A DNA stretch of 64,000 nucleotides from a virus (lineage: Duplodnaviria; Heunggongvirae; Uroviricota; Caudoviricetes), in IMG/VR virus record IMGVR_UViG_2974506819_000001, positions 162,789 through 226,788 of that record. One strand, given 5' to 3'. Under the pieces are notes generated by a model. That model searched no databases, had not been told where the DNA came from, and was given only the letters and a program-made list of their open reading frames with translations. The position numbers and the translations under genes were made by a program. This document shows positions 60,983-62,410 of the stretch, one piece after another; position 1 is the stretch's first letter; each line of letters begins with the position of its first letter.

Positions 60983-61714
60983 ATGACCGAAAGCAAGAAA
61001 CCGTTTTCACAAGACACCATGAAAGCACTGTCTGTGATTACTCGTTTTAACGACGTTATCGGCAATACCAATGTGCTGCGTAGTCTGTACCGTGAATCAC
61101 AAAAAGAGTGGGCGAAATCGGTTAACGCAAACAACGGCGAACACCTGATCAAATCCATTCACACGGCCGGCTTTAAAACCGATGCTGTGCAGGCATACGT
61201 CAGTGTGCTGGCGAAAATCTTCCTGAGCAGCCAGGGTGCTAACCTGAGCGCCTGGTCTAAGAACAGCCTGGCTGAAGAGCATGCACTGACCGCTGCGGTT
61301 ATTAGTCGTATGGGCACCAAGCTCTATGACTCCAACGATCAACTGTTCACCGACGTTGCCACTAAGGTGCTGGGCTTTGACCTGTATCTGGTTGAGTACG
61401 TGCTGGCGTCTGAAGGCGGCGACAAAGCCGTTGACAAACTGGTGGCGTATGTGACCTCTCAGTTTGACGATCTGGTTGGGGCAGAAAACGCCGAGATTTA
61501 TTTCGACGAGCTGATTGAGCACCTGAAACACATCGACCTGATTCAGGACCGCGACAACCTGTTTAGCACCGCGCTGCATCTGATTGTAGGTTACGGCGAA
61601 ACCGACGGTTATGCAGCGTTGCTGAAAGCGGCACAGAACGTGCTGGGTTATGTCATCGGTGATCGTACCGGTGAGCAAGACAAAGTCTTTACCTTCCCGC
61701 CGGCGAAACTGTAA
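60983..61714 (+). CDS. Hypothetical helical protein
   Basis: 243-aa ORF with SD AAGGA and highly biased codon usage. Confidence 0.7.
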   Translation: MTESKKPFSQDTMKALSVITRFNDVIGNTNVLRSLYRESQKEWAKSVNANNGEHLIKSIHTAGFKTDAVQAYVSVLAKIFLSSQGANLSAWSKNSLAEEHALTAAVISRMGTKLYDSNDQLFTDVATKVLGFDLYLVEYVLASEGGDKAVDKLVAYVTSQFDDLVGAENAEIYFDELIEHLKHIDLIQDRDNLFSTALHLIVGYGETDGYAALLKAAQNVLGYVIGDRTGEQDKVFTFPPAKL

Positions 61715-61730
61715 CTGCTTCGCCTAAAAT

Positions 61731-61756
61731 ATTTGAAGCCTGTACTATTAGGGTGA
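61731..61756 (+). promoter_or_regulatory. Putative early-promoter variant
   Basis: ATTTGAAGCCTGTACTATTAGGGTGA aligns with the CT(A)YAYTAYTA..GTG consensus. Confidence 0.4.
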
Positions 61757-61825
61757 CACAGAAGCGGACATCAGTCCGGGGAGATGCGGACGCTACTCCT
61801 TTTGTTTGTCTGCTTCTGTTTACTC
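61751..61825 (+). ncRNA. Structured 5' leader or small RNA (unassigned family)
   Basis: 13-bp stem 61758-61770/61807-61819, extended by 61751-61756/61820-61825, enclosing the hairpin GTCCG/CGGAC. Confidence 0.5.
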
Positions 61826-61857
61826 ATTTAACCATAAATACTTTTAAAGGATAGAAG

Positions 61858-62298
61858 ATGTCTCAGAATAAATCTTTCGCTGACAAAATGGCTGCTGGTG
61901 TAACTAACCTGGTTGAGAACGCACAGTGGGACAAAGCCACTAAACACGCAACCTTCAGCGCTGACAAAATCGAACTGCCTGAAGGCGTATCGGTTGAGTC
62001 CATCAATACCCACATCGATCTGTTCAATACCCTGACCGCGCAAACCGAAGTGGCCACTGCCGAAATCGGCCGCGCACAACGCGCTGATGACGATACCCTG
62101 ACCACCGTCGACGGCACGCTGCAGTTCGGTAACTTCGTTGTTAACTCTCAGCATCACCTGTCTCAGAAAGCCGGCGACGATGTCATGTACGGTCTGTCCA
62201 CCACAACCGTCGATTACATCCACTCCGCAGAGCAGACTGACTGGCTGGAAAAACAGCGCAGTGCCAACATTGAGCTGGCAACCTCCCTGTTCAAATAA
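61858..62298 (+). CDS. Hypothetical 146-aa protein, apparently monocistronic
   Basis: SD AAGGA, strongly biased codons, own promoter-like motif and terminator. Confidence 0.75.
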   Translation: MSQNKSFADKMAAGVTNLVENAQWDKATKHATFSADKIELPEGVSVESINTHIDLFNTLTAQTEVATAEIGRAQRADDDTLTTVDGTLQFGNFVVNSQHHLSQKAGDDVMYGLSTTTVDYIHSAEQTDWLEKQRSANIELATSLFK

Positions 62299-62319
62299 TC
62301 CGTCGCGCTCCGGCGCTGG

Positions 62320-62372
62320 CTCCTATCCCCAATTGGGGATAGGAGTTTCCCTTGTCGTTCTTTTTTGTTTTT
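62320..62372 (+). terminator. Terminator (perfect 26-nt palindrome plus T-tract)
   Basis: CTCCTATCCCCAATTGGGGATAGGAG followed by T-rich sequence. Confidence 0.75.
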
Positions 62373-62382
62373 AATTTATATT

Positions 62383-62410
62383 AAATTTCAAATCTACATT
62401 ACTAATGTGA
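62383..62410 (+). promoter_or_regulatory. Putative early promoter
   Basis: AAATTTCAAATCTACATTACTAATGTGA. Confidence 0.65.

Follow-up and report, generated by a model that had tools for sequence, protein, structure and literature searches.

A covarying two-hairpin RNA motif behind an early promoter of chimalliviruses

Results

A selected two-hairpin motif in the leader of the 146-aa gene

We found that the leader of a 146-aa gene carries a structured RNA motif of about 50 nt that is under selection and consists of two adjacent hairpins, P2 and P3, and a U-rich tail. The gene lies in a 64,000-nt stretch of a Caudoviricetes record (IMGVR_UViG_2974506819_000001, positions 162,789 to 226,788), hereafter the window. 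Sequence comparison places the source phage, whose complete genome has 235,108 bases, among the EL/RisingSun-type chimalliviruses; the gene order (RNA polymerase subunit, endolysin, head proteins, S80 prohead protease, 243-aa gene, 146-aa gene, HD protein) agrees in the window with gp191-194 of Pseudomonas phage EL. The elements of the transcription unit are as follows.

60983..61714, + strand: upstream 243-aa gene (EL gp193 homolog), no terminator between its end and the promoter
61726..61755, + strand: phage early promoter of the phiKZ/EL type, with an A/T tract, TTTGAAGCCTGTACTATT at 61732-49 and TG at 61754-55
61758..61764, + strand: 5' strand of the closing helix P1, pairing with 61813-19; optional in the family
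61765..61778, + strand: hairpin P2, CGGAC-ATCA-GTCCG; family consensus CAGRY-loop-RYCTG
61780..61799, + strand: hairpin P3, GGAG/CTCC with an internal loop, directly after P2
61800..61807, + strand: U-rich tail after P3, 7/8 U; candidate pause or termination site, 53 nt from +1
61807..61812, + strand: anti-P2 segment GTCTG, present in some lineages only and predicted to invade the 5' arm of P2 as soon as it has been transcribed
61813..61825, + strand: 3' strand of P1 and its outer extension, with a G-C to A-U compensation in L010
61847..61851, + strand: Shine-Dalgarno sequence AAGGA, downstream of the motif within an A/U-rich spacer
61858..62298, + strand: 146-aa gene (PHROG 13587, EL gp194 ortholog)
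62319..62373, + strand: strong terminator hairpin (62319-62346, -23 kcal/mol) and downstream U run

The leader stretch folds at -38.6 kcal/mol (z -3.36), and 0/200 shuffles were as stable. All motif-bearing homologs share one layout, namely promoter, 4-15 nt, P2, 0-3 nt, P3 and U-rich tail, with a nearly constant distance of 43-57 nt from +1 to the tail. Set beside the definition of an intrinsic terminator, a GC-rich hairpin before a U tract, P3 has a stability of -6 to -14 kcal/mol in all of these homologs, and the tail is on average 70% U, against 38% across the following 30 nt, with at least 6 U in 16/30. Metatranscriptome runs contain this region as assembled contigs. The closing helix P1 appears in most predicted folds, individually exceeds shuffles in only 6/30, and is absent from the Vibrio and N1M2 groups. 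The P3 loop frequently contains ACA across distant clades (14/30 homologs, e.g., L016, L040, L006, L080) and GGAY in the RisingSun clade. One locus (L024:1886-1965) carries an additional P3-like hairpin, followed by a U-rich tail of its own and inserted behind P3 and inside P1.

An original prediction, made from the window alone, had read the right letters at the right places (stem 61751-70 with 61807-25, GTCCG 61774-78, CGGAC 61787-91, GCGGAC at 61764-69 and 61786-91, CTCC 61796-99) and assigned several of them other roles. The CGGAC-ATCA-GTCCG pairing that it treated as an alternative does exist, as the conserved hairpin P2, and its GGAG/CTCC pseudoknot is the ordinary nested and equally conserved hairpin P3. 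Its main fold, a long stem enclosing a GTCCG/CGGAC hairpin, is suboptimal at -34.1 kcal/mol, 1.8 kcal/mol above the long stem with P3, and that inner hairpin beats shuffles in 1/30 homologs, the window strain only. The letters of the stem of about 19 bp do pair; its outer four pairs (61751-54), however, precede the likely +1 and are therefore possible only in read-through RNA.

P2 and P3 are conserved and covary

About 30 distinct leaders were gathered from orthologs ranging from 97% down to about 27% protein identity. The three core pairs of P2 were kept in 30/30. Column 4 of P2 contains four types of base pair, and on the protein tree both partners changed together four times (P=0.002 if they evolved independently); two further columns gave P=0.03-0.04 in the same test. 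The P2 boundaries were set by a pairing rule, which is a bias toward covariation, but plain MAFFT alignments likewise show no variation in the CAG and CTG columns that anchor the hairpin. In P3, both sides had changed in 7/9 pairs. For P2 and P3 together, both partners had changed in 10/14 pairs, more than in any of 500 shuffles or any slid control, a count that rests on a model-fitted alignment leaning toward structure. Within the RisingSun clade, the element is 87-100% identical, versus 47-62% at third codon positions. RNAalifold returned no consensus on the raw MAFFT alignment because the loops and P1 vary in length. The covariation in relatives that the original prediction had named as its check is thus present, and P2 and P3 are under selection.

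A covariance model built without the RisingSun clade or EL (R3) recovered 61760-61809 as its top match in the 235-kb genome (E 0.027); the EL gp194 leader (E 1e-4) and the Survivor leader (E 0.016) were also top matches. We used R3 because another model, R2, was over-fitted, with the window match ranked fifth (E 0.21). The remaining R3 matches were rejected, being terminators at gene ends or, in one phiKZ gene, an antisense stretch. The latter (L081, phiKZ 219859-219897, minus strand, E 0.0016) has a P3-like hairpin and a U run, lies antisense to a gene end with no early promoter upstream, and is probably a chance match or a terminator.

Rfam 15 gave no match at gathering threshold in the window, chance matches only in the region (E 2-6.5), and no match to the motif in the six homolog loci searched, in keeping with the earlier remark that no riboswitch consensus fits. 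A literature search found no description either, and the motif is apparently undescribed.

The motif follows a genuine early promoter

The promoter-like sequence noted earlier proved to be a genuine phage early promoter. Its motif has 17 + strand matches in the genome against 0-3 in shuffles, and a G six bases past the motif, outside the search pattern, is invariant in 16/16 intergenic sites and in homologs. The consensus TTT(C/G)ARRY...TAYTAY with a downstream TG recurs upstream of genes and agrees with the published N1M2/OBP/EL early-promoter consensus (PMC7058600). The window spacing also fits that of phiKZ promoters, described as an "extended -10 and T-rich motif upstream of -19" (PMC8244752). 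The invariant G and this spacing point to G61755 as the likely +1.

No two adjacent hairpins were found behind the other 16 promoter-motif sites of the genome. The leader of the 146-aa gene is the most stable among the 17 (z -4.26), with one other site at a similar z. Outside the window, at about 113990-114040 of the genome, another early promoter precedes one long hairpin (z -4.27) that has no relation to the motif. At L016 and L025, a palindrome of -22 to -25 kcal/mol without a U tail adjoins the early promoter on its upstream side.

As originally proposed, the 146-aa gene has its own terminator (the -23 kcal/mol hairpin listed above), and the next early promoter, at 62386, stands behind it. 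Equivalent gene-end terminators of -20 to -26 kcal/mol occur in most homologs; in these and in that of the window, 10-15 nt often separate the long perfect stem from the U run. The description of the gene as monocistronic holds for transcripts begun at the 61755 promoter and is limited to them, since no terminator follows the 243-aa gene. P3 could possibly terminate the RNA of that upstream gene: most motif-bearing loci lack an upstream terminator and 5/7 motif-less loci have one. Against this, 9/17 promoters of the source genome also lack one, and the compared loci are related.

The motif implies the gene, and the gene does not need the motif

Scanning IMG/VR with a promoter-plus-P2 pattern that ignored the protein gave 30 matches. 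An ortholog lay downstream in 26/30, and two more matches were cut off at its start; the two matches without P3 had no such gene downstream, so that the matches with P3 lead into a 146-aa ortholog in 28/28 cases. The motif is single-copy per genome and was never found away from this gene family. It still heads the unit where one unrelated ORF has been inserted (L029, N1M2, Yubaba, pEt-SU, Survivor) and in AH04, where two unrelated ORFs intervene, and the gene can begin up to 1.4 kb downstream (AH04, pEt-SU). At L029:1810-1965, the ORF inserted between motif and ortholog encodes 51 aa. Such a position is consistent with control acting on the entire transcript rather than with occlusion of the Shine-Dalgarno sequence. 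We found no homolog of the 243-aa gene in the N1M2 group.

Conversely, the motif is absent before orthologs in PQ1, D3, AhC3_1, SXP01 and phiKZ. With the motif always before the gene and several gene copies without it, the dependence runs one way. Individual leaders vary further. In Aeromonas phage ZPAH34 (L068:886-960) the leader is reduced to a perfect P1 and P2 without P3, and Aeromonas phage CF8 (L066:809-960) has two early promoters, one for the motif and another between the motif and the gene. The annotated ortholog of Pseudomonas phage PQ1 (L002:2162-2671) matches in its last 56 residues only, suggesting a frameshift or sequencing error.

Two folds in some lineages, neither touching the ribosome-binding site

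In most homologs, the predicted ground state is P2 and P3, usually closed by a variable P1 into a three-way junction. Four lineages (the RisingSun clade, EL, L030 and L034) have an additional 3' segment that captures the 5' arm of P2, and the resulting fold is favored by 5-8 kcal/mol. The predicted probability of P2 falls from 0.75-1.0 in truncated RNA to 0 at full length in the RisingSun clade, EL and L030; in L034, P2 is lost already in short RNA. For window RNA ending at about 61800-61810, P2 and P3 dominate; the long stem becomes the preferred fold once the RNA extends to about 61813-16, with the GTCCG/CGGAC hairpin as a transient, strain-specific competitor. The anti-P2 segment lies downstream of the tail, and P3 stays intact. 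Bistability, proposed earlier, therefore describes the window lineage, which has two mutually exclusive folds, and does not extend to the family, where it occurs in only 7/30 homologs (4 lineages). P2 is nevertheless retained, with compensatory change, in the lineages whose full-length leader destroys it; ViennaRNA underrates three-way junctions, which weakens the argument from this destruction.

A switch acting on the ribosome-binding site finds no footing in these folds. The Shine-Dalgarno sequence is equally exposed in both (mean unpaired probability 0.35), lies 33-61 nt from the motif among homologs, and is touched by neither fold. The suggested CsrA/RsmA site fares similarly: GGA is in the P2 loop of 0/30 and the P3 loop of 5/30 homologs, and such control is therefore not a family trait; the window motif contains no ANGGA, and its loop GGA (61788-90) is about 60 nt from the Shine-Dalgarno sequence (61847-51), neither overlapping nor adjacent.

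The 146-aa protein

The 146-aa protein is acidic (pI 4.7), and its gene ranks 7 of 209 in codon bias, bearing out the strongly biased codons reported earlier; on this basis, the gene looks highly expressed. The predicted structure (pLDDT 92) has structural relatives across chimalliviruses. No Pfam match was obtained, and fold searches gave no significant match (best PDB E 0.15, best Z 5.4), which is evidence neither of absence nor of novelty; the same searches gave no support for an HU/IHF-like fold suggested by the topology. A related PHROG and an HMM match on one target (E 4e-6) suggest a remote ortholog of phiKZ186, a gene with an early transcript whose knockdown strongly cut plaques (10.1101/2024.07.31.605949). 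The protein is probably abundant, early and essential. The family extends to Burkholderia phage FLC9 and weakly to Bacillus phage AgentSmith, and among its conserved residues are the histidines H30, H52, H99 and H122.

Discussion

A possible factor-read attenuator

We tentatively favor a reading in which the motif is a cis-acting, promoter-proximal attenuator or pause on the 146-aa transcript that is read by a factor and releases an RNA of about 50 nt. The virion RNA polymerase would start at G61755, and P2 and then P3 are computed to fold as they emerge from it. Some 50 nt from +1, P3 and the U-rich tail could then act as a pause site or as an intrinsic terminator of low strength. The stacked P2-P3 shape would be recognized by a factor, for which the abundant 146-aa protein or a different phage protein is the likeliest candidate, and this factor would set the ratio of the released RNA to read-through. 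After read-through, the 3' strand is computed to close P1 and, in the window lineage, to invade P2; the resulting stable 5' rod would protect the mRNA and erase the P2-P3 site. As the gene looks highly expressed, such termination would have to be leaky.

Several observations speak for the attenuator. The persistence of P2 in lineages whose complete leader abolishes it suggests that it works in nascent or truncated RNA, and this retention, the constant distance from +1 to the U-enriched tail and a gene untouched by the motif together favor action during transcription. The selection and covariation of P2 and P3 and the 28 scan matches with P3 that all lead into the gene are in line with it, as are the second promoter behind the motif in CF8 and the second P3-like hairpin and U tail of L024. 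Phage 201phi2-1 offers a precedent, with eight 5'UTR-derived RNAs from premature termination (PMC11512511) and a reported range of -6.9 to -19.3 kcal/mol, within which P3 about falls. On the other side, P3 is far weaker than the gene-end terminators of the group (-6 to -14 vs -20 to -26 kcal/mol), and the tail has five or fewer U in 14/30. We found no conserved antiterminator pairing, the sole candidate being the GTCCG/CGGAC hairpin that beats shuffles in 1/30. The 146-aa protein is acidic and without a known nucleic-acid-binding fold, and several relatives keep the gene without the motif.

Other readings of the motif

The strict one-way link from a single-copy motif to one gene is also what a post-transcriptional autoregulatory operator would produce, with the 146-aa protein binding the P1-P2-P3 junction in finished mRNA and lowering translation or stability. 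Conserved stem bases with variable loops suit recognition of shape, the three-way junction is predicted in most homologs, and the protein is probably abundant. We nonetheless consider this operator unlikely: the Shine-Dalgarno sequence lies 33-61 nt from the motif, with the same accessibility in both folds, the gene can lie up to 1.4 kb or two ORFs downstream (AH04, pEt-SU), P2 is not predicted in the full-length RNA of four lineages, and the protein is acidic.

The released RNA could instead be the main product, a stand-alone trans-acting RNA serving as protein decoy or ligand, with the gene living on read-through. The original prediction gave such an RNA about 75 nt; judged by the 43-57 nt from +1 to the tail, it would have about 50 nt. 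Its constant-length anatomy of promoter, two hairpins and U tail, the separate promoters for motif and gene in CF8 and the 5'UTR-derived RNAs of 201phi2-1 (PMC11512511) speak for the idea. We regard it as improbable all the same, given that the motif was never found away from the 146-aa gene, was lost in several relatives, and has no conserved single-stranded seed, its loops varying in length and sequence.

A constitutive 5' stabilizer appears just as improbable. Here the helices at +1 would block 5'-end-dependent decay without any regulation, and the two folds would be accidental pairing redundancy. P1 indeed begins at or within 3 nt of the likely +1 in many homologs, and protection would act on the whole transcript of a gene with strong codon bias. 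Yet any hairpin would serve this end, whereas P2 length, the CAG/CUG bases and P2-P3 adjacency are conserved even without P1, and the leaders of other early genes with strong codon bias are unstructured.

A pair of hairpins separated by 0-3 nt directly behind an early promoter, acting before the 3' strand is made, recalls put RNA; a put-like motif would bind the phage RNA polymerase as nascent hairpins and alter downstream pausing or termination. This is very unlikely for a motif found at only one of 17 promoters, and a strong terminator followed by a fresh early promoter behind the gene leaves little to read through, which also counts against it. Least credible is a metabolite riboswitch or CsrA/RsmA-controlled switch, for which the two folds of the window lineage and the GGA in the P3 loop of the RisingSun clade can be cited, against an absent Rfam match, no conserved joining nucleotides, an alternative fold in 7/30 only, a loop GGA in 5/30 without ANGGA context and far from the Shine-Dalgarno sequence, and a downstream gene that is not metabolic.

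Comparison with known systems

The motif resembles attenuators, put RNA and autoregulatory leaders, and among the testable criteria it has the full definition of none. HK022 put RNA binds the host RNA polymerase and suppresses terminators. The motif shares with it two adjacent hairpins directly behind an early promoter, presumably active in nascent RNA; unlike put, it is transcribed by a phage polymerase, is followed by a U-rich tail, and precedes no long operon needing antitermination. Autoregulatory leaders are known from ribosomal-protein operons (S15, L20) and T4 gene 32. Like these, the motif is a compact multi-helix leader linked strictly to one abundant protein, with shape kept more than loop sequence. 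It does not overlap the translation start, as the inserted ORFs in six phages illustrate, and the 146-aa protein is acidic and gave no related fold in the searches.

Type III toxin-antitoxin cassettes (ToxIN, AbiQ) are ordered promoter, short structured RNA, weak terminator and gene, and the window follows the same order. The motif, however, is a single unit without tandem repeats or pseudoknot, only L024 having a second P3-like hairpin. The 146-aa protein is not a known RNase, has no Pfam match and persists without the RNA in several phages, and knockdown of the phiKZ186 ortholog strongly reduced plaques (10.1101/2024.07.31.605949). Closest in setting are sRNA005 and sRNAgp182 of 201phi2-1 and phiKZ (PMC11512511), which are likewise promoter-proximal structured chimallivirus RNAs before a conserved gene and conserved between genera. 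Those RNAs have mapped ends and precede the gp182 tail gene, whereas our motif precedes the EL gp194/phiKZ186 family and, unlike sRNAgp182, is absent from phiKZ.

Very little is known about how nucleus-forming jumbo phages regulate genes at the RNA level. Because their transcription is compartmentalized, the usual ribosome-coupled attenuation cannot work. It is conceivable, albeit doubtful, that the motif represents a new phage RNA class, in which a transient P2-P3 structure is bound by the 146-aa protein or the polymerase, sets termination versus read-through and is later erased by the anti-P2 strand. If so, this would be a new class of co-transcriptional RNA acting on the virion RNA polymerase, in a setting where transcription is walled off from ribosomes, and the phiKZ186 family would gain its first RNA ligand and its first function. 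A covarying, single-copy motif on a conserved early gene offers a handle on pausing and termination by the virion RNA polymerase and on the role of this protein family.
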